64,000 bases of DNA, taken from Gammaproteobacteria bacterium. Lineage in GTDB: Bacteria; Pseudomonadota; Gammaproteobacteria; JAJFKG01. The notes beneath the pieces were generated by a model that ran no database searches, was not told the DNA's origin, and was given only the letters and a program-made list of their open reading frames with translations. Shown here one piece after another: positions 21,140 to 29,414 of the stretch; position 1 is the stretch's first letter, and every line of letters begins with the position of its first letter. The stretch is taken from positions 651,362 through 715,361 of the forward strand of contig OZ220716.1 in NCBI GenBank assembly GCA_965116795.1, written 5' to 3'. The position numbers and the translations under genes were made by a program.

Positions 21140-22522
21140 ATGAAACAACTTAGAATTACAACCAGGTTAAACCGTTTTGGTCTATGCATGGCCGTATTAT
21201 GTGCCTTGGTAAGCCATGCTGCATGGGCAGCAACTACTAATGCAACCGACAAAGGCATTTTCAATTCTGGTGTGTTTGACGTGGGTGCGTATGGTAATAC
21301 CGAGTTTGGCTTCATCCTGCAAACTAAGCTATCTGGCTATTTAGGCGACAGCGGTCGTCAAGCAATGGCGCTGGAATTAAGTGGTGGCCCTAAAACAATG
21401 CGGGTTAATGCAACCTATGGATTAGCATTAACATCAAAGCAACGCCTTAAATTAACCTTTGAACGCTTAGATCAAGAACTTGATTTTGACTTTGATTCTG
21501 GCAACGTAAGCCGTTGGGTCGGGCAAAATGCAGTGGGTGCCGGTTATGCATATTTATTTGATAACCCGTATATTAATGCATTTAATCTGGGTGGTTATTT
21601 CTCAAATTCGCCAAGTAGACACCTTTCTTCGAAAGATAAGCCATTTGATGATGAGACTAACACCGGTTATTTAGAACCGGAAAAACGTCATATCGCCGGT
21701 GCTAACAGTGGTAATGTGCATGCTGATCTAACCGTGACTCCATGGCCGTACGGCCGTTTAACCGGCGGTATGGATTACGACATTGTACGCTTTGATACCA
21801 AGTATCGTGATTATGATGTCGATGGCTTAGGTGGCCACGTGAGATTAACTCAGCGTATCTTCCCACAATTAAAAGCCACCTTTGCGTCTGAGTTTCGCCA
21901 AAATCAACGTGAATACCTAGGTGAAATTGGTTGGTTGTTACCATCACCACGTGGCACACAGTTAGAGTTGGTAGCATTATTAGATTATGTCGATAATTTA
22001 GCAACTGAACGTGACTTTTACACCAGCGGTGCACGTTTGAATTTATCACTCAATCCAGGCGATGGCACTTATAGTGAGTTAGCTAAACAACGTCATGCTG
22101 ATCTATTAACGTGGACACGTACTCCAGCAGTACGTATGTCGACTGTGTTGGCTGTGACGGATAACAAAGTGTCGGCGTATATCCGAGGGTTGTATGTGTC
22201 AGAACTTGTTGATGGGCCTGTTGGTAGAGTTGTGCGTGGTTGGACAGTAACGGAAGCGCAAGGCTTCAATCTTAACGAAGCTATTGCGATAGATTTATTT
22301 AACTATAATAGCAATTCTGGAGAGGCAGTTATAGAGTACATAGACTCGCCAACTGGTGGAATTCAAAATCTCAGAATCACCCGTTCGGATGTTAGAGGAG
22401 TGGTAATAGACTCTAATTCTGCGTGGGTAGCCACTAGTACAGGATTTAGGTGTGATGTGCCAGCTGTTGAAGTTGATAACGCTATAAATAGATGCCGTTT
22501 CCTCGCAGCAAAGCAGCATTAA
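21140..22522 (+). CDS. Secreted / outer-membrane-candidate protein, paralog A of a two-member family, function unknown
   Basis: RBS gaggag then ATG at 21140. Signal peptide MKQLRITTRLNRFGLCMAVLCALVSHAAWAA. Shares a ~330 aa beta-rich core with the protein at 27775 (AYAYLFDNPY, LGGYFS-SPS, REYLG-IGWLLPS, WTRTPAVRMS-VLA). Confidence 0.8.
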   Translation: MKQLRITTRLNRFGLCMAVLCALVSHAAWAATTNATDKGIFNSGVFDVGAYGNTEFGFILQTKLSGYLGDSGRQAMALELSGGPKTMRVNATYGLALTSKQRLKLTFERLDQELDFDFDSGNVSRWVGQNAVGAGYAYLFDNPYINAFNLGGYFSNSPSRHLSSKDKPFDDETNTGYLEPEKRHIAGANSGNVHADLTVTPWPYGRLTGGMDYDIVRFDTKYRDYDVDGLGGHVRLTQRIFPQLKATFASEFRQNQREYLGEIGWLLPSPRGTQLELVALLDYVDNLATERDFYTSGARLNLSLNPGDGTYSELAKQRHADLLTWTRTPAVRMSTVLAVTDNKVSAYIRGLYVSELVDGPVGRVVRGWTVTEAQGFNLNEAIAIDLFNYNSNSGEAVIEYIDSPTGGIQNLRITRSDVRGVVIDSNSAWVATSTGFRCDVPAVEVDNAINRCRFLAAKQH

Positions 22523-22581
22523 GCAACACTCTGTGATGTGTGTTAGTTAAGAATAGAATTCACATCCCTCAACTCAGACAA

Positions 22582-22620
22582 ACCCCAGAAAGGTAACTTT
22601 CTGGGGTTTTTTCTTTCTTT
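22582..22620 (+). terminator. Rho-independent terminator after paralog A
   Basis: Stem aaccccagaaag/ctttctggggtt followed by tttttctttc. Confidence 0.7.
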
Positions 22621-22629
22621 TCCATCATC

Positions 22630-22821
22630 CCAGCGGCTTGACCCAAAGGTTTTTATACAAGTAATACACCGACCTTGCTCTCCCCAGCCATCACCTCGCG
22701 GCTTGACTCAAAGGCCTCTACGCAAGTAACGCAACTATCTCCTCCCATGGTCGTAACCACAAGTAATGCACCTATCCCCTCCCTACGGCCGTCACCCCGC
22801 GATCAAGTCGCGGGGTGACGG
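22630..22821. repeat. Repeat family C: tandem degenerate units ending in hairpin ccccgcgatcaagtcgcgggg
   Basis: Repeated cgcggcttgac.caaagg...tacgcaagtaa.gca.c...cctccc units. Related copies at 27068 and 39131. Confidence 0.65.
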
Positions 22822-22916
22822 TTGTAAGAAAGCGACAGATACTTGCATTAATAGATTTTTTGTGCAATAAGTATAGGAAATTCCTATACAGCTCTATAAG
22901 ATAATCTTACATACCC

Positions 22917-23155
22917 ATGAAAGAAATTACGCGACATCTCGAAAGCTATATTATTCAATCACTTACGTCATTTCCGGCGGTATACATTGCTGGCCCTAGG
23001 CAATCCGGCAAGACCACCCTGGTACGACATATTGCCGCCAATCACCATCCGGCACGTTATATTACCTTTGATGATTTACAAATGCGTTCAGCAGCGGAGC
23101 ACGATCCAGACGCATTTTTACGCAGTCTAACCGGTGCAGTGGTATTAGATGAAGT
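22917..23155 (+). pseudogene. AAA+ ATPase (DUF4143 family), N-terminal fragment disrupted by an IS66 insertion
   Basis: Walker A GPRQSGKTTL. Reads ...VVLDEV and then enters the IS. The C-terminal part resumes at 25863. Confidence 0.75.
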
Positions 23156-23339
23156 GTATGCTTCCAGTACCGTTGCGTGACAGCCATCAATCTGTCAATT
23201 ATTCTGTGTAGGGGCAATTTATTTTTTTGATTTTGCCATTGTGCTTTTTTCCGACTTGCAATTTGAAAATAATGGGATCAGACTTGTTTCCAGGTCAGGT
23301 TATTTCTGACTGACCAATGGATGAAACAAGGATTATGTT

Positions 23340-24973
23340 GTGAAGAAACCGGAAACGATTGATTTAAGCCATGCAGAAGCAGAGTCATTACTGTCACGAC
23401 TTGAAACAGGTAATCTATCAGACACCGATCGCAAGCTATGCAGCAGTGCACTACGCATGGTATTTTGGTTGCAAGGTCAATTAACCGAAGCCAAACTCAG
23501 TATCCGTCGATTGAAGAGAATATTTGGGATCTGCAGCGAAAAACAGGGGTAAAAGGTACATCAACGTCGGCAAGTTCTTCTGACAAAGTGCCAAAAGACA
23601 CTGACAACGTTAAGGAAGATGATGTATCTGAGCAATCAAACAAAGGGCATGGACGCTATAGCGCAGATGATTATGTTGCAGCAGAAGTTCACAAAGTGAG
23701 TGATGAACGTTACTACCCAGGTGCACATTGCTTACATGTTGATTGTAAAGGCCGTTTATATTTATGGAATAAACCATCAAAAGTGATCCGTTTGTTAGGC
23801 CAACCAATGGCGCGGGTTGTACGTTATGACAGAGAGGTCTATCGTTGCGGATTGTGTTTAACGTTATTTACAGTGCCGTTACCAAAAGAAAGCGGCAAAG
23901 ATGTCTATAGCGATAGTTTCAAAGCGGTATTGGCGGTGAATCACTATGTATTTGGTTTGCCATTTTATCGGATAGCGAAGTATCACGAAGCGCAAGGCAT
24001 TCCATTACCGACATCGAATCAATTTGCGTGCATGGAGACGGTGTTTAATCACGTACTTCCTGTTTATCAAGCATTGCAACGTACTGCGGCCAACGGCGAG
24101 TTGGTCCAATACGATGACACCACAGCGAAGGTCCAAAGCCTCGTGTTAGAAAACCAGGCGCTAGAAGAAAAAGCACGTCGTGGCATATTTACAACAGCGG
24201 CACTATCAAAAGTAGGTGATAACGAAGTGGTATTAGTCTTTACAGGTCGCTCACATGGTGGTGAGAATATCACAGCGTTATTGCGCAAACGTGATACTGA
24301 GTTAGGGTCTGTTATTTTAATGTCAGATGCGCTGAGTCGAAACCGCATCAAAGACGAGTCGATTGCCGAACAGACGCAAGTTAGCTATTGTTTAACCCAT
24401 GCCAGACGCTATTTTTTCGAGTGCAAAGACGTTTATCCGAAGGTATGTCAGCCAGTACTAAACTGGATTGGGCAAGTGTATCGACACGAGCGTCATTGTA
24501 AAACATACGGCTATACACCAGAGCAACGCCTGCATTATCATCGTCGTCATTCGAAACCGATAATGAAACAGCTACGGCGATTTTTAGAACAATGTGTTCG
24601 AAAACGCTGGGCGGAGCCTAACAGTAGTGCTGGCAAAGCTATCAATTATATGCGCAACCATTTTCGAGAGTTAACGTTATTTTTATCTGTTCTTGGTGCA
24701 GTGCTAGATAACAATGATTCTGAGCGTTTAATTAAGATTGCACCCGTGATGTATCGTAAGAATTCACAACAATATCGTACCACTTATGGTGCTATGGTTG
24801 GCGACGTGTTGATGAGTGTATTATTCACGGCGCAATATGCTGGTGTTGACCCAGTGGATTATTTACAAAGTTTATTGTTGCATAAAGATGAGTTACAACA
24901 GCGTGCTAACGATTGGTTACCTTGGCATTATAAGGACACACTCAACACCAAGGCATTAGCCAAAGCGGCCTAA
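23340..24973 (+). pseudogene. IS66 TnpC transposase, apparently frameshifted near 23440-23550
   Basis: The N-terminal leucine-zipper part sits in the 23340-23552 frame and the remaining 511 aa in the 23438-24973 frame, with a CxxC zinc-finger region (YRCGLCLTLF). Confidence 0.65.
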
Positions 24974-25332
24974 GCCGCTTTGGCAGGTAGAGACTTCCAG
25001 TTTTGTTGACAATTAGCGGTAATGGGATTGCCGTTATACAGTAAGATATTCAGTGTGCTGGCAGTTAATTCAATCGTCGTGCAATTATCTTGTGGCCACC
25101 ACTGAAGTCGTCCTCTGGACAGTCGTTTATGACATAGCCAGAAACCTTGGCCATCGTAGGTCAGCAGTTTGATGGCGTTACGACGACGATTGGTAAAGAC
25201 AAATACCGTGCCATTAAAGGGGTCATTGTACATGTTAGCTTGGCAGACTCGACACAAACCTTCGATACCGGCTCTGAAGTCCACCGGTTCTTTGGCTAAT
25301 AAAATGCGGTGTTGAGGCGTTATTTGCAACAT
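24970..25332 (-). CDS. IS66 Orf2 (TnpB)
   Basis: DFRAGIEGLCRVCQ...DPFNGTVFVFTNRRRNAIKLLTYDGQGFWLCHKRLSRGRLQW, the classic IS66 Orf2. Confidence 0.8.
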   Translation of the reverse strand: MLQITPQHRILLAKEPVDFRAGIEGLCRVCQANMYNDPFNGTVFVFTNRRRNAIKLLTYDGQGFWLCHKRLSRGRLQWWPQDNCTTIELTASTLNILLYNGNPITANCQQNWKSLPAKAA

Positions 25333-25342
25333 CCGTTTATCC

Positions 25343-25780
25343 TCAGCACAGTGTTTTCAATAGTTGGGCTGTTGATGTGACATCCGCTAGACGAATAGCC
25401 ACATGCAGACCATGTGGGTAATGGATAGTCAACTCACACGCGGCCGTTTGTATTGCGATGTTGGTTTGAGGTGCTTTGTTCTTAATTGGTTTGACGGTGA
25501 CAAAGTGTGGTGTTGTTTTACTTGATACGGCTTTTTGCTCACGCCAGCGTTTTAGTTGAGAATGATTTATTCTTAATGACTTCAGTTTTGAGAATGGTAT
25601 GCCGTTATTAAAGGCGCGAACAGTTGCTTGGCGTAACGCTAGTGGCACAGGCGCATTGCTAGATTTGTTAGCCCGCCATTGTTCAAACTGTTGTTGCAAT
25701 TGATCGAATGATGACGAATTTGCAATCTGTTTTTTACTACGTAAAGTTGTGCTGTGCGTTTTTGATTTCCTTGTTCCCAT
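25343..25780 (-). CDS. IS66 Orf1 (TnpA)
   Basis: Its ~145 aa size and position immediately upstream of Orf2 on the same strand are as expected for Orf1. Confidence 0.6.
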   Translation of the reverse strand: MGTRKSKTHSTTLRSKKQIANSSSFDQLQQQFEQWRANKSSNAPVPLALRQATVRAFNNGIPFSKLKSLRINHSQLKRWREQKAVSSKTTPHFVTVKPIKNKAPQTNIAIQTAACELTIHYPHGLHVAIRLADVTSTAQLLKTLC

Positions 25781-25862
25781 TAAAATGTCCTCTTGATACT
25801 GTTAGCAACTTCAGGCTAAACCATCAAAAAACACTATGCACGCACTTTTGCGGGAAGCATAC

Positions 25863-26882
25863 GATGAAGTGCAATTAGTGCCAGAGATCTTCAGGCCATT
25901 AAAAATCATGATTGATCATTATCGTGGTGATGCTGATGGCGGTCGCGGAAAGTTTTTATTAACCGGTTCAGCCAGCATTATGGCATTGCCTGCATTATCA
26001 GATGCCTTAGTTGGACGCATGGCATTACATACCCTCTTACCATTTTCTATGCGCGAAATTAGTGTGTGTGGTGCAAATGATTTTATTGAACAAGTGTTTG
26101 CGGCTGATTGGGATGTTACCCAAACTGATACCACTGATCTCAATACCATGTTAACTAGAGCATCATTTCCCGAGTTGTTATCATTAAATACAGTAGAAGC
26201 ACGCCATACATGGTGTGATAGTTATTTAAATACATTGTTGCAACGCGATGTGCGCACTTTATTAGAAGTTGATAAACTCGCAGTTTTGCCCAATTTATTA
26301 CGTTTAATAGCAACGCATAGCGGTAGCATATTAAATACTGCATCGTTATCTCGTACTATTGGTTTAAATCATGTTACAACTAAAAAATATTGCCTATTAC
26401 TGAATAGTTTATTTCTAACCTTATCTATACCGGCATGGTCGGTTAATCTTGGTAAGCGCTTAGTGAAATCTCCAAAGATATATTTAACAGACATCAATTT
26501 ATTAGGGTATTTACTTAATATTCACCTCAATGAATTACATCAACAAAACCCGATGTTATTGGGCCAAGTCTTAGAAAATGCGGTTGCCATTGAATTAAGT
26601 AAACAAATTGCATTCTCAAAAACACGCGTGCATTTGTACCATTACCGCACCAGTGCTGGGCAGGAAGTCGATTTTATTCTAGAAGATAGTCGTGGTCGTG
26701 TGGTTGCTATTGAAGTTAAAGCTAGCAGCAAAGTAACGGCCAATGATTTTCGGCATGTATTAACCTTAAAAGACGCATTGGGTAAACGCTTTCATCGAGG
26801 TTTTATTATTTATCAAGGCGCTGATAGCGTGGCATTTGCTAATGACTTATTTGCTATTCCGTTTAATGCGTTGTGGGCGTGA
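25863..26882 (+). pseudogene. AAA+ ATPase (DUF4143 family), C-terminal part. An ATG inside the IS right end at 25836 creates an in-frame ORF
   Basis: Resumes ...DEVQLVPEIFRPLK, so IS excision would restore LDEVQ (Walker B). The DUF4143 C-terminal region is intact. Confidence 0.75.
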
Positions 26883-27067
26883 TGTATGCGGTATGCTTGA
26901 ATTGGCTTTGTTGGCTGTGTGATGTTGTCACGGTTATGTATGTCCACTCCACACTAAATTGCACTAAGTGCAACCTACTGTAGAGTAGATTGCTAGGAAC
27001 TCCGATAACATCATCATGTTATGGGATTTTTTATGCTGGGGCGTTGTTCCTAAACCCCGCAAACCAA

Positions 27068-27141
27068 GCCTATAGATCTCTACACAAGTAATGCAACTAC
27101 CTCCTCCCGATGGCTATCACCCCGCGGCTTGATCGCGGGGG
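27068..27141. repeat. Repeat family C copy with hairpin ccccgcggcttgatcgcggggg
   Basis: tctacacaagtaatgcaactacctcctccc, near-identical to the 22700-22760 units. Confidence 0.65.
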
Positions 27142-27701
27142 CCAGGGAATCGTGTGTATTTTCTGATGCTTACTATGGTTTTATCTCTGAGCTTGATCCA
27201 GGAACGGAAAAAGAAAGAGTCATAGGGTGACGCCAATCAGAGAATGATCGAGCCACAGATGCTTATTCTGAGTGTGGATTGGGAACAAGCGCCAACAAGA
27301 AATCATAATCTTCATTTTATCCCATAGTTACGCTCACTTAGACGTTAACAGGCTCGTCAAAAATGCCTCGAGAAACTTCAGAATAGTGCTTATTTTGACC
27401 AGAAAAGGTGTGTTTTGGTCATAACTATTGCAATTGTGTTTATTTTTTGATACCTTTCCTCTCCGCTTAGACAAGCGATTGTCATTACGGACAACACGAT
27501 AAATCTGCTCACAATGGAGCCATTGCAGATACAAAGCAGCAGAAGTTGCTTGGGATATTAGATAGCAAGGTTGCATATCACTCGCGCAGGCAAGCGCACG
27601 TTAAAACATTATAAAACAGCAATTTGACACAATACTGAATAGATAAATCAAGATGATTTGTTTTTAATTAAAACTAATACCAATAGTGTATTTGGTTTTA
27701 A

Positions 27702-27732
27702 TGGATAATTATTCACAGTGAATAATCATCCA
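27702..27732. promoter_or_regulatory. 31-bp near-perfect palindrome, candidate operator ~45 bp upstream of paralog B
   Basis: tggataattattcacagtgaataatcatcca with one mismatch between arms. AT-rich hexamers loosely resemble a Fur box. Confidence 0.3.
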
Positions 27733-27774
27733 GCAATAATTTTATTTTAATAATTATTATATAAGGGGTTAATA

Positions 27775-29316
27775 ATGAAAACAGGCAATGCTTGTAGTAA
27801 GCAATTTATTTTCGGCACATTAATCGCAGCAACTATCATGGCAGTTGGTTTGATATCAAGCCAAGTAATCGCTGAGGTAGCAGAACAATCGGCGATCCAA
27901 CCAGCACCGATCCAAGCAAATTACAGTGATACTGGCAGCCATTTATTTAGTTCAGGCACATTAAGTACGGGTGGTTATTACGATACGACATTGGGCGCGT
28001 TTGCCGATGGTAAGTTGTCAGCCTATCTTGGTGGCAGTGACCAACATGCTGTAGCGTTAGAATTTGTCGGTGGTGCTAACCAATACCGAGTGAATACAAC
28101 GTACGGTTTTGCATTAACCGATAACCAACGAATTAAACTCACCTACGATTATCTAACCCAATACCACAATTTTAAGTTTGATTTAGGCGACACTAATCGT
28201 TGGGTAAAACAACATGCAGTGGGTGGTGCGTACGCGTACTTGTTTGATAACCCCTACGTAGAATCGATTGAAGTAGGTGGTTACTACTCGACATCACCAA
28301 GCCAAGGCTTATCAACTCAAACTGAAACAACAGACACAACTATCAAAACCAATGAACGTCGTATTGCCGGTGCTACCAGTTGGCATGCCTACACTGATTT
28401 AGCATTACGTTTATGGCCGCACAGTCGTTTGATCGGTGGTATGGACTATGACTATGTCAATTTTGATACCCAGAACTCCAACACGAAAACGGTTAACGGC
28501 GTTGGTGGTCACGTACAAGTGGAACAACGTGTACTACCACAAGTTAAAGTGACTGGTATGGCACGTTTCCAACAACAACAACGCGAGTACCTGGGTTCAG
28601 TAGGTTGGTTATTGCCATCACTACACGGGATGCAATTGGAGTTAGCTGCGGTGACGGATTACATTGACAGCATTGCTACCAAACGTCATTTCTTTATTAA
28701 TGGTGCACGTTTAAGTGTGGCATTAGGTACATCAAATGGTCGTTATGCTGAGTTAGATGATAACGGTAAACAAAGTCTATTAGCCTGGGTGCGTACCCCA
28801 GCTGTGCGTATGAATGATGTGTTAGCAATTGCAGATGGGAAAAGCCAGTTCCTAGATATTGATCCACAGTATGAATCAAAAACACTCATACCAGAAGCAA
28901 ATCGGATTCGGTGTAGTGCTAACAAAGATGGAGACGGAAATGTAACTAGCATTACTTGTATAAGTGATGATGGACTTTGGAAAGGAACGGTAACTGAAGT
29001 GGATTATGAGGGTTTAGATGCTCTTGTTGATGAAGAAACAGGTGAAGTGTTGGTGAATTTGAAATTCATAGAAGCAATCTACATCCCTGATGGTACAGAA
29101 CATTTATTAATGGCTAAATATAAAGATCCAGGAACTCTTTTCGAAGCAACTTTAACATCGAATTCTAACAGTTATTTACAGGTTATTGATGTTGATAAAG
29201 AAAGTGATAGTAGTCTATGGACTCCTACTGATGAAGTAGATGGCCATCTATCGTGTTCTTTTGGAGAGAATATCACTGTTGACCAATGCCAATTCCTCGT
29301 ACCAGCAGGTAGTTAA
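27775..29316 (+). CDS. Secreted / outer-membrane-candidate protein, paralog B (513 aa), function unknown
   Basis: Signal peptide. The core is homologous to paralog A, followed by a distinct acidic Cys-containing ~150 aa C-terminal domain. Confidence 0.8.
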   Translation: MKTGNACSKQFIFGTLIAATIMAVGLISSQVIAEVAEQSAIQPAPIQANYSDTGSHLFSSGTLSTGGYYDTTLGAFADGKLSAYLGGSDQHAVALEFVGGANQYRVNTTYGFALTDNQRIKLTYDYLTQYHNFKFDLGDTNRWVKQHAVGGAYAYLFDNPYVESIEVGGYYSTSPSQGLSTQTETTDTTIKTNERRIAGATSWHAYTDLALRLWPHSRLIGGMDYDYVNFDTQNSNTKTVNGVGGHVQVEQRVLPQVKVTGMARFQQQQREYLGSVGWLLPSLHGMQLELAAVTDYIDSIATKRHFFINGARLSVALGTSNGRYAELDDNGKQSLLAWVRTPAVRMNDVLAIADGKSQFLDIDPQYESKTLIPEANRIRCSANKDGDGNVTSITCISDDGLWKGTVTEVDYEGLDALVDEETGEVLVNLKFIEAIYIPDGTEHLLMAKYKDPGTLFEATLTSNSNSYLQVIDVDKESDSSLWTPTDEVDGHLSCSFGENITVDQCQFLVPAGS

Positions 29317-29414
29317 GCGATAAACCAAACTGGTCATAACTATAAAAGGATATAGGTTAGTTTAGGTTACACAATTTATTTTTTAGTAATTAGATAACAA
29401 CAAGGGTGAAAATA

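Follow-up and report, generated by a model that had tools for sequence, protein, structure and literature searches.

Outer-membrane proteins with an inverse-autotransporter layout, and a conserved two-gene cassette pairing one of them with a stalked membrane protein, in uncultured Gammaproteobacteria

Inverse autotransporters (type Ve secretion), defined in a published survey by the presence of the invasin_beta Pfam domain, are found almost exclusively in Gammaproteobacteria (PMC4943183). Their linker crosses the lumen of the barrel up to the extracellular rim, where it ends as a short strand (PMC4943183, PMC13078405). According to Heinz et al., inverse autotransporters with short C-terminal extensions are encoded together with downstream substrates, as ZirS and ZirU, which depend on ZirT; the short extension was proposed to act as a periplasmic substrate-binding module (PMC4943183; PMC2270342). 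Here we describe two paralogous genes, called A and B, and the gene immediately downstream of B, called the partner, which reside in a 64,000-nt stretch of a gammaproteobacterial genome (contig OZ220716.1, positions 651,362 to 715,361), referred to as the window. That A and B belong to a large, unannotated outer-membrane family featuring the inverse-autotransporter layout is well supported. B and the partner look like an undescribed two-gene module of the cell envelope, in which one class of passenger domains is strictly paired with an unusual membrane protein that bears a beta-helix on a stalk. In the literature, no paper was found which ties inverse autotransporters to Legionellales or describes the A/B family.

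Gene A (21140–22522) and gene B (27775–29316) lie on the plus strand and encode products of 460 aa, from the ATG at 21140, and 513 aa, respectively. Both open reading frames (ORFs) had been delineated in a first reading of the sequence made without database searches, hereafter the original prediction, and are confirmed. The public protein collection holds the exact 460-aa product of A, and the same ATG is used in the public annotation. The two proteins are 49% identical over 313 aa (BLASTP, E 1e-101), far beyond chance, and the paralogy claimed at the outset holds in the pairwise alignment. The identical runs in the shared core are YAYLFDNPY (9 aa), RTPAVRM (7 aa), GGMDYD, QREYLG and GWLLPS. 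They are shorter than reported in the original prediction, which was right in describing a core with identical stretches, but quoted strings that differ in part between A and B. By inspection, rather than by a predictor, both N-termini have the appearance of Sec signal peptides, as had been noticed: a basic n-region and a hydrophobic core precede an AxA-like site (AWA before A, and VIA before E). The predicted signal peptide of A spans residues 1–30 (21140–21229, plus strand; ending in HAAWA before A), that of B residues 1–33 (27775–27873, plus strand; ending in SSQVIA before E), the latter overlapping a modelled helix at residues 7–35. As judged by eye the sequences read MKQLRITTRLNRFGLCMAVLCALVSHAAWA before A, and ...FIFGTLIAATIMAVGLISSQVIA before E. 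The shared core is free of Cys, and all the Cys residues of the mature proteins (two in A, four in B) are found in the C-terminal domains. These domains had been called acidic, Cys-containing and divergent. Divergence and Cys content are evident, and the B domain is strongly acidic (isoelectric point, pI, 4.05), but the acidity of the A domain is mild (pI 5.3).

A and B are old paralogues carrying passengers of different classes, and only B has a partner. The hypothesis that the pair arose by a recent tandem duplication was rejected, each protein being about as close to paralogues located elsewhere in the genome as to the other member of the pair. A is a monocistronic, stand-alone copy. A hairpin resembling an intrinsic terminator, made by a 13-bp stem and a T-run, is found just 3' of the gene (22580–22609, plus strand).

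The assignment of the A and B core to an outer-membrane beta-barrel, and not to a soluble beta-sandwich, is well supported. The original prediction had left both folds open. The barrel is favoured by the AlphaFold model, a fold comparison and Foldseek, and the sandwich is abandoned. The structure of B was modelled with AlphaFold2 from a 10-sequence alignment, and the model has a mean predicted local distance difference test (pLDDT) score of 69. It features antiparallel strands at residues 91–317, a well-placed segment extending to residue 350, a flexible hinge, and a separate beta-rich C-terminal domain. The modelled barrel (28045–28725, plus strand) consists of 14 strand elements by DSSP, and pLDDT values are mostly 80–90 in this core. 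The barrel of A (residues ~74–304; 21359–22051, plus strand) has approximate boundaries, transferred from the modelled barrel of B by alignment. In the fold comparison, B scored 16.4 with both the autotransporter EstA and KdgM, 16.3 with VhGalP, 16.2 with NanC, 16.0 with intimin, 15.6 with NalP and 15.4 with AIDA-I. The figure for the Legionella major outer-membrane protein MOMP (9nh1) is 11.6, compared with 15.4–16.4 for the others, and the earlier guess of a MOMP-type porin finds neither sequence similarity nor preferential structural similarity to lean on. A Foldseek search of the PDB with the whole B model returned generic outer-membrane barrels only, in agreement with an outer-membrane barrel but with no finer discrimination. 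The N-terminal 12-stranded outer-membrane barrel and, by inspection, the N-terminal Sec signal peptide of type Ve proteins thus have counterparts in A and B.

The pair had been considered a lineage-specific family. Close relatives of A and B are indeed very rare, as only 9 clusters, none of them named, were found among 5.8 billion proteins in a word-indexed search (B is P0001 in this set). The barrel, in contrast, belongs to a broad family, made by 774 representatives at 50% identity, 457 of which fall below 1e-30 in an exhaustive hidden Markov model (HMM) search with the family profile. The relatives come from metagenome-assembled genomes (MAGs) of uncultured microorganisms filed as "Gammaproteobacteria bacterium". 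No curated HMM family in Pfam or NCBIfam claims the A/B core, which is in line with what had been supposed, and nothing usable was retrieved from the two collections for A, B or the partner. A sequence search of the PDB with B alone gave noise only. No match was found by scanning JGI metagenomes with the close-family alignment, nor by searching plasmids with B. At least seven paralogues (A, B, P0002, P0004, P0005, P0013, P0017) reside in the same 2,447,832-bp genome, which suggests that the family is a major part of the surface biology of the organism.

The family has a conserved order of parts, namely a signal peptide, an optional periplasmic wall-binding domain, the N-terminal barrel, a conserved linker and a C-terminal passenger. 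In the best 155 of the 774 relatives, the homologous region starts at a median distance of 58 aa from the N-terminus, and 84 to 4,742 aa are found C-terminal of the barrel in every complete protein. Domains were sought with Pfam in 25 of the longer members, at thresholds of 0.001–0.01. Arrays of immunoglobulin (Ig)-like domains (He_PIG, Big_9, TIG) are encoded 3' of the barrel in about 10 of the 25, immediately after the barrel in several, and one relative has weak Big_1 and Invasin_D3 matches. AMIN domains, which bind peptidoglycan in the periplasm, precede the barrel in 3/25, and are missing in A and B. Ig-like arrays, as found in the surface-exposed passengers of type Ve proteins, are carried by relatives only, the passengers of A and B having another fold.

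The segment which directly follows the last strand is the most conserved of the family, and conforms to the motif W-x3-P-A-V-[RHY]-M-x2-V-L-A-[IV]-x-D-[EQ], of which PAVRMxxVLA[IV]xD is nearly invariant in the 774-member family. The linker of A (22052–22162, plus strand) reads W-TRT-PAVRM-ST-VLAV-T-D at the invariant alignment columns. In B it corresponds to residues 318–354 (28726–28836, plus strand), with W338, P342-A-V-R-M346 and V349-L-A-I-A-D354, and up to residue 350 it is modelled beside the barrel at pLDDT 74–84.

The fold scores would also accommodate A and B as ordinary diffusion channels, either 12-stranded of the KdgM/NanC kind or MOMP-like, the C-terminal domain being periplasmic as in OmpA. 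Barrels of the KdgM type, however, measure ~210 aa and lack extensions, and members of the A/B family are always extended, by up to 4,742 aa, often with the Ig-like arrays typical of adhesins. The invariant linker has no role in a porin, and no porin family in Pfam or NCBIfam matches. We regard channels of this sort as very unlikely. The original prediction had spoken of a porin/adhesin module, and the porin half of this definition is not retained, as a plain porin misses the defining layout, in which the N-terminal barrel is followed by the invariant linker and then by the passenger.

Passengers have been sorted into classes on the basis of their Cys residues and motifs. Class I passengers, found in A, P0002, P0005, P0008 and P0013, carry a terminal C-x(8-14)-C-x-[FY] loop alone, and the motif Y[IV]xPLTxxEL. 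The passenger of A (22163–22519, plus strand) is ~119 aa long, has two Cys and a motif of the YIRxLxxSEL type, and ends in a C-x13-C-x-F loop. Class II passengers, found in P0003, P0004, P0007, P0009, the MAG copies and others, feature two extra Cys, in the pattern CP...GGW...C.Y. The passenger of B (28837–29313, plus strand) is a four-Cys variant of its own, made by 159 aa and beta-rich. When compared to the PDB, it has no solved structural relative, and is not C-type lectin-like. P0017, encoded outside the window in the same genome, has the same barrel and linker, followed by a C-terminal domain which looks helical by eye, contains four Cys and differs from both classes. Therefore, at least three to four small passengers, unrelated to each other, are borne by the barrel in a single genome.

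The partner (29415–32846, plus strand) is a 1143-aa protein if translated from the ATG at 29415, the ORF being open from a GTG at 29406. The former is the likelier start, as AAGGG is found 8 nt upstream. The stop codon of B, at 29316, is located 89 nt before the GTG and 98 nt before the ATG, close to the spacing of about 90 bp given in the original prediction. In contrast to A, which is followed by the 13-bp-stem terminator, no terminator-like hairpin separates B from the partner, and the two genes are probably on one transcript. A sigma-70-like match (TTCACA-17-AATAAT; 27712–27740, plus strand), located 35 nt upstream of B, is to be taken as a lead only, as 26 such matches were found in the region versus 27 expected, with no excess.

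The partner is composed, in order, of a very basic N-terminus, a weak hydrophobic segment, a small Cys domain, SP repeats, a Cys-containing central domain, further SP repeats, a transmembrane (TM) helix and a helical tail. The first hydrophobic segment, called TM1 (residues 55–73; 29577–29633, plus strand), has a mean Kyte-Doolittle value of 1.63. The first S/P-rich spacer (30012–30743, plus strand) measures 244 residues, and includes 27.8 copies of a 24-nt unit (30051–30704). The conserved central domain (30744–31592, plus strand; ~290 aa) is probably a degenerate beta-helix similar to those made by pentapeptide repeats. It is followed by a second S/P-rich stretch of 142 aa (31593–32018, plus strand), a stalk adjoining the membrane anchor. 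The anchor, called TM2 (32052–32108, plus strand), is a strong transmembrane helix (Kyte-Doolittle 2.05), flanked by basic residues on its C-terminal side. The variable helical C-terminal domain (32109–32843, plus strand) measures 245 aa, is rich in Glu/Asp at its end, and has no Pfam match of note. The 24-nt units form a second array of 12.9 copies at 31647–31943, and the GC content is locally 52% in the two arrays, versus ~41% elsewhere. Such arrays likely vary in length between strains, and are hard to assemble.

The public protein collection lacks the exact partner product, and a word-indexed search with its central domain gave no match. Central domains of partners from different loci are homologous (E 1e-9 to 1e-28), and outside them, in the N- and C-terminal regions, conservation is lost. 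The best PDB matches of the central-domain profile are pentapeptide-repeat beta-helices, at weak E values (0.006–0.16). The Pentapeptide families considered were PF00805, PF13599 and PF13576, made by tandem A(D/N)LXX repeats. Pfam was run on 7 central domains, and matched Pentapeptide_4 in one (3.9e-5) and Pentapeptide in two (0.004), the window copy having no match. Across loci, partners are membrane-anchored proteins of 500–1400 aa, with the putative pentapeptide-like beta-helix and an S/T/P stalk. The stalk next to TM2 measures 93–190 residues, and should span ~28–55 nm, as estimated from the usual rise of an extended proline-rich chain. We know of no precedent for a pentapeptide fold set between low-complexity stalks in a membrane protein.

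The original prediction had linked B to the downstream repeat protein. The link is real, and is conserved in other organisms. Among loci with readable flanks, the partner adjoins the barrel gene in 12/12 of those encoding class II or B-type passengers, corresponding to the window, L002, L003, L004 (twice), L005, L009, L010, L011, L012, L015 and L016. It is absent from 4/4 class I loci (A, L008, L013, L014). By our own arithmetic, the Fisher exact probability of 12/12 versus 0/4 is 1/1820, the loci being phylogenetically related. As the class of passengers to which B belongs is always encoded beside the large membrane protein, the assignment of B and 29415–32846 to a conserved cognate cassette is well supported. 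The barrel and partner genes are 40–100 nt apart in most loci. L004 contains two cassettes, the partner ORF runs off the contig in L003, and the order is reversed in L005, where the partner is upstream of the barrel gene. In L015, ~1 kb separates the two genes, and the interval contains a fragmentary ORF of 55 aa, basic and hydrophobic. This ORF (in 7113–8089) resembles the N-terminus of the partner, detached from the rest, and two short similar ORFs are found on opposite strands (…GDLSGSSRGMTGG… and …GDPSGLERGMTGV…), which suggests that a small insertion with inverted repeats has broken the partner gene in two. In L008, a very acidic 197-aa ORF (2576–3169), without Pfam match and with a single hydrophobic segment, starts 205 nt after the class I gene P0002; class I passengers could have in it a partner of another, smaller kind.

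A and B may otherwise be self-sufficient type Ve-like surface adhesins, each exporting a small passenger that binds a ligand of the host or the environment, the downstream protein being co-regulated or co-inherited, with no contact with B. The family architecture does speak for proteins that export the passenger at their own C-terminus. Four class I paralogues, A being one of them, have no partner, and no sequence similarity links the B passenger to the partner. Yet the passenger class predicts the partner perfectly in 16 readable loci, including the one in which the order is reversed. The short spacing in most loci, coupled to the lack of a terminator in the window, is difficult to account for without a functional link. 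Accordingly, adhesins independent of the neighbouring protein are unlikely, though they deserve some weight.

In the reading that we prefer, to which we assign a probability of about 0.5, A and B are type Ve-like proteins, and the B passenger docks the stalk-borne beta-helix of an inner-membrane partner, the two forming an envelope-spanning assembly. The Sec signal peptide would direct A and B to the periplasm, and the N-terminal barrel, made by about 12 strands, would insert in the outer membrane. The near-invariant linker would most likely run back through the barrel lumen, and the small disulfide-bonded passenger would be handled at the barrel, or exported through it. TM2 would fix the partner in the inner membrane, leaving the basic flank and the tail in the cytoplasm, and the Pro/Ser/Thr-rich stalk of the partner would bridge the periplasm, so that the beta-helix reaches B at the outer membrane. 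Here, the B passenger would either dock the beta-helix or hand it through. In a bolder reading, the partner stalk would thread the B barrel, so that a single polypeptide would cross the inner membrane, periplasm and outer membrane, exposing the beta-helix on the surface while attached to a cytoplasmic domain; we give this only a slim chance. To our knowledge, no type V-like barrel is known to assemble such a direct link across the envelope. The idea of an adhesin module, or of a secretion partner for the repeat protein, was already in the original prediction, and has a published precedent in the ZirT-type inverse autotransporters (PMC4943183). B, but not A, matches these in having a short extension and an adjacent partner gene.

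Several results weigh against the docking assembly, or against the kinship with inverse autotransporters on which it is modelled. The context loci come from few related uncultured lineages, and 12/12 versus 0/4 overstates their independence. The fold alone fails to separate intimin from the KdgM and NanC porins, or from classical autotransporter barrels, and the B model has 14 strand elements, compared with the ~12 strands proposed. The Pfam family IAT_beta (PF11924) matches neither A nor B at E ≤ 1, and none of the 25 relatives scanned; in the positive control, E. coli YeeJ scored 6e-114. The family profile retrieved nothing at E ≤ 10 from all PDB sequences, and an hhalign comparison of a family alignment to the YeeJ barrel, taken as a single sequence, gave a probability of 0.2%. 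Common descent with true inverse autotransporters is therefore not proven, and the shared layout may have arisen by convergence. As for the partner, it has no similarity to the B passenger by BLASTP or phmmer, unlike ZirS and ZirU with respect to ZirT. ZirT-type partners share the C-terminal domains of the translocator and are soluble Sec substrates; the B partner, with a strong TM and a cytoplasmic-type tail, is membrane-anchored. The widely spaced, conserved Cys of the beta-helix would hinder its passage through a narrow barrel. Finally, Sec export of the beta-helix is hard to explain in L003, L010 and L016, because partners in these loci have no N-terminal hydrophobic segment.

Profile-profile comparison gave a weak similarity. 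When an IAT_beta alignment of 40 non-redundant YeeJ relatives was compared by hhalign to 136 barrels of the A/B family, the score was 41.7, with a probability of 65% and a P value of 6e-5; controls with reversed profiles scored ~22 (P 0.03–0.045). In a permissive setting, the two profiles are co-linear over 263 columns, and VLAIxDE is set opposite the IAT motif IVLEYRK. This is suggestive of a very distant common ancestry, and not a proof of it. For this reason A and B are named inverse-autotransporter-like, and are not filed as IAT_beta members.

The same cassette could be viewed as a pair of the intimin/Tir kind, in which the partner would be an effector, translocated for example by a Dot/Icm-type system, and inserted in a membrane of the host or of the vacuole as receptor for the B passenger. 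The genes tir and eae are likewise neighbours. The partner recalls the Tir hairpin, as its N-terminus is basic, its first hydrophobic segment is weak, and an exposed domain is followed by a second TM and a variable tail. Three partners lack a Sec-type N-terminal signal, the C-termini of partners are rich in Glu/Asp, recalling the E-block signal of Dot/Icm substrates, and the spacers are mucin-like S/T/P repeats. A weak hint comes from the IS66 transposase of the window, whose best plasmid matches, at 35% identity, are in Legionella. Genes adjacent to the cassette in related MAGs are effector-like or eukaryote-like, and fit a host-associated lifestyle of these lineages. They encode a 2498-aa protein, and, by eye, a PP2C-type phosphatase, a Ser/Thr kinase-like ORF and a 421-aa ankyrin-repeat protein, as well as a Fic-domain protein recognised by Pfam (L002 29–7525 and 14600–16189, L005 4214–5479, L016 19–642). 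However, the organism is not known to have a secretion system or a host, no secretion system is encoded in the 64-kb window, TM2 is strongly hydrophobic, and the B passenger is not of the C-type lectin kind. The exposed region of the partners would be a segment of 300–800 aa with a folded, Cys-containing beta-helix, far larger than the ~100-aa loop of Tir, and its passage across a host membrane from the cytosolic side would be difficult. The hallmarks of the intimin/Tir pair, a lectin-like tip and a translocated two-TM hairpin receptor, were not found, and a translocated receptor is improbable in our opinion.

The gene found between A and B (22917–26882, plus strand) encodes an AAA_14/DUF4143 ATPase; as recognised in the original prediction, it is interrupted by an IS66-family element (inverted repeats at 23156–23179 and 25839–25862). 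The insertion is outside the module. No functional meaning was found in the fact that A and B flank the ATPase gene, on which stress had initially been laid, A and B being old paralogues with different passenger classes. An AAA_14/DUF4143 gene is found beside the barrel gene also in L015 (3865–5133), a metagenomic contig unrelated to the window, but the ATPase was discarded as a conserved neighbour, since the proteins are 27–32% identical and the orientation is opposite; the co-occurrence is probably a coincidence. The terminal inverted repeats of the element measure 24 nt, are 75% complementary, and are located inside the two halves of the split gene. All three genes run in the same direction in canonical IS66 elements. 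In this element (23156–25862) the DDE transposase gene tnpC (23438–24973) is on the plus strand, and TnpB (PF05717; 24970–25332) and a TnpA-sized ORF (25343–25780) are encoded on the minus strand, in a converging arrangement. A small 111-aa protein of the HTH_3 (Xre-type) family, which features an Arg-rich patch, is encoded at 33210–33545, ~360 nt downstream of the partner and on the same strand. The rest of the window, with a GC content of ~41%, is ordinary chromosome, hosting glyS, trpS, hslU, argS, pilT, gpmI, ubiB and a gene for a B12-dependent ribonucleotide reductase. A 482-aa ORF (59883–61331) has no NCBIfam match at 1e-5; nine other window ORFs in the same scan are all housekeeping.

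If the interpretation of the A/B family is correct, type Ve-like autotransport reaches beyond the IAT_beta family recognised by current annotation. The sequence clusters concerned number at least 774, come for the most part from uncultured Gammaproteobacteria, and are now labelled as hypothetical, or named for their Ig domains only. The family would have been missed by the published survey, because inverse autotransporters were defined there by invasin_beta (PMC4943183). The strict pairing of passenger class and partner provides a test case for inverse autotransporters with short passengers as two-partner translocators or docking devices. The module is of relevance to type V secretion and envelope biology, with the reservation that we infer both the topology and the interaction with the partner.

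Among known systems, intimin, invasin and YeeJ have the same order of parts as the A/B family, and Ig-like C-terminal arrays are found in many relatives of A and B; both groups reside in Gammaproteobacteria. The slot occupied by LysM in intimin and YeeJ hosts AMIN in relatives of A and B, the slot being analogous, the domain not the same. The groups differ in the linker, which reads PAVRMxxVLAIxD in the A/B family and RxDLVxRNNxIVLEY in inverse autotransporters, and in the passenger, which in A and B is a small domain, without a solved structural relative and distinct from both Ig-like and C-type lectin-like domains. The A/B family may be a deep unannotated branch of inverse autotransporters, or a convergent analogue of them. 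In type Va autotransporters the barrel is C-terminal and the passenger N-terminal, and the order is reversed in A and B. KdgM and NanC have neither linker nor passenger, whereas the A/B family has both. The central domain of the partner finds its best, though weak, profile matches in the quadrilateral beta-helices of Qnr, Rfr and the thylakoid lumenal protein TL15. In contrast to pentapeptide-repeat proteins, most partner members fall below the curated thresholds, and their domain has conserved Cys and is flanked by low-complexity stalks. The intimin/Tir pair is similar in that the gene of an outer-membrane adhesin, arranged as an inverse autotransporter, adjoins that of a protein in which two hydrophobic segments flank an exposed domain, with variable ends, and the partner is located upstream, as tir, in one related locus (L005). 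The two cases differ because no type III system is known in the organism of the window, the exposed region of the partner is larger by a factor of 3–8, several partners have a weak first hydrophobic segment or none at all, and the tip of the passenger is not lectin-like. The ZirT/ZirS/ZirU system resembles B and its partner in that the partnership is conserved across genomes. ZirS and ZirU, however, are soluble, Sec-exported proteins with immunoglobulin superfamily domains resembling those of ZirT itself, whereas the partner of B is membrane-anchored and shares nothing with the B passenger.

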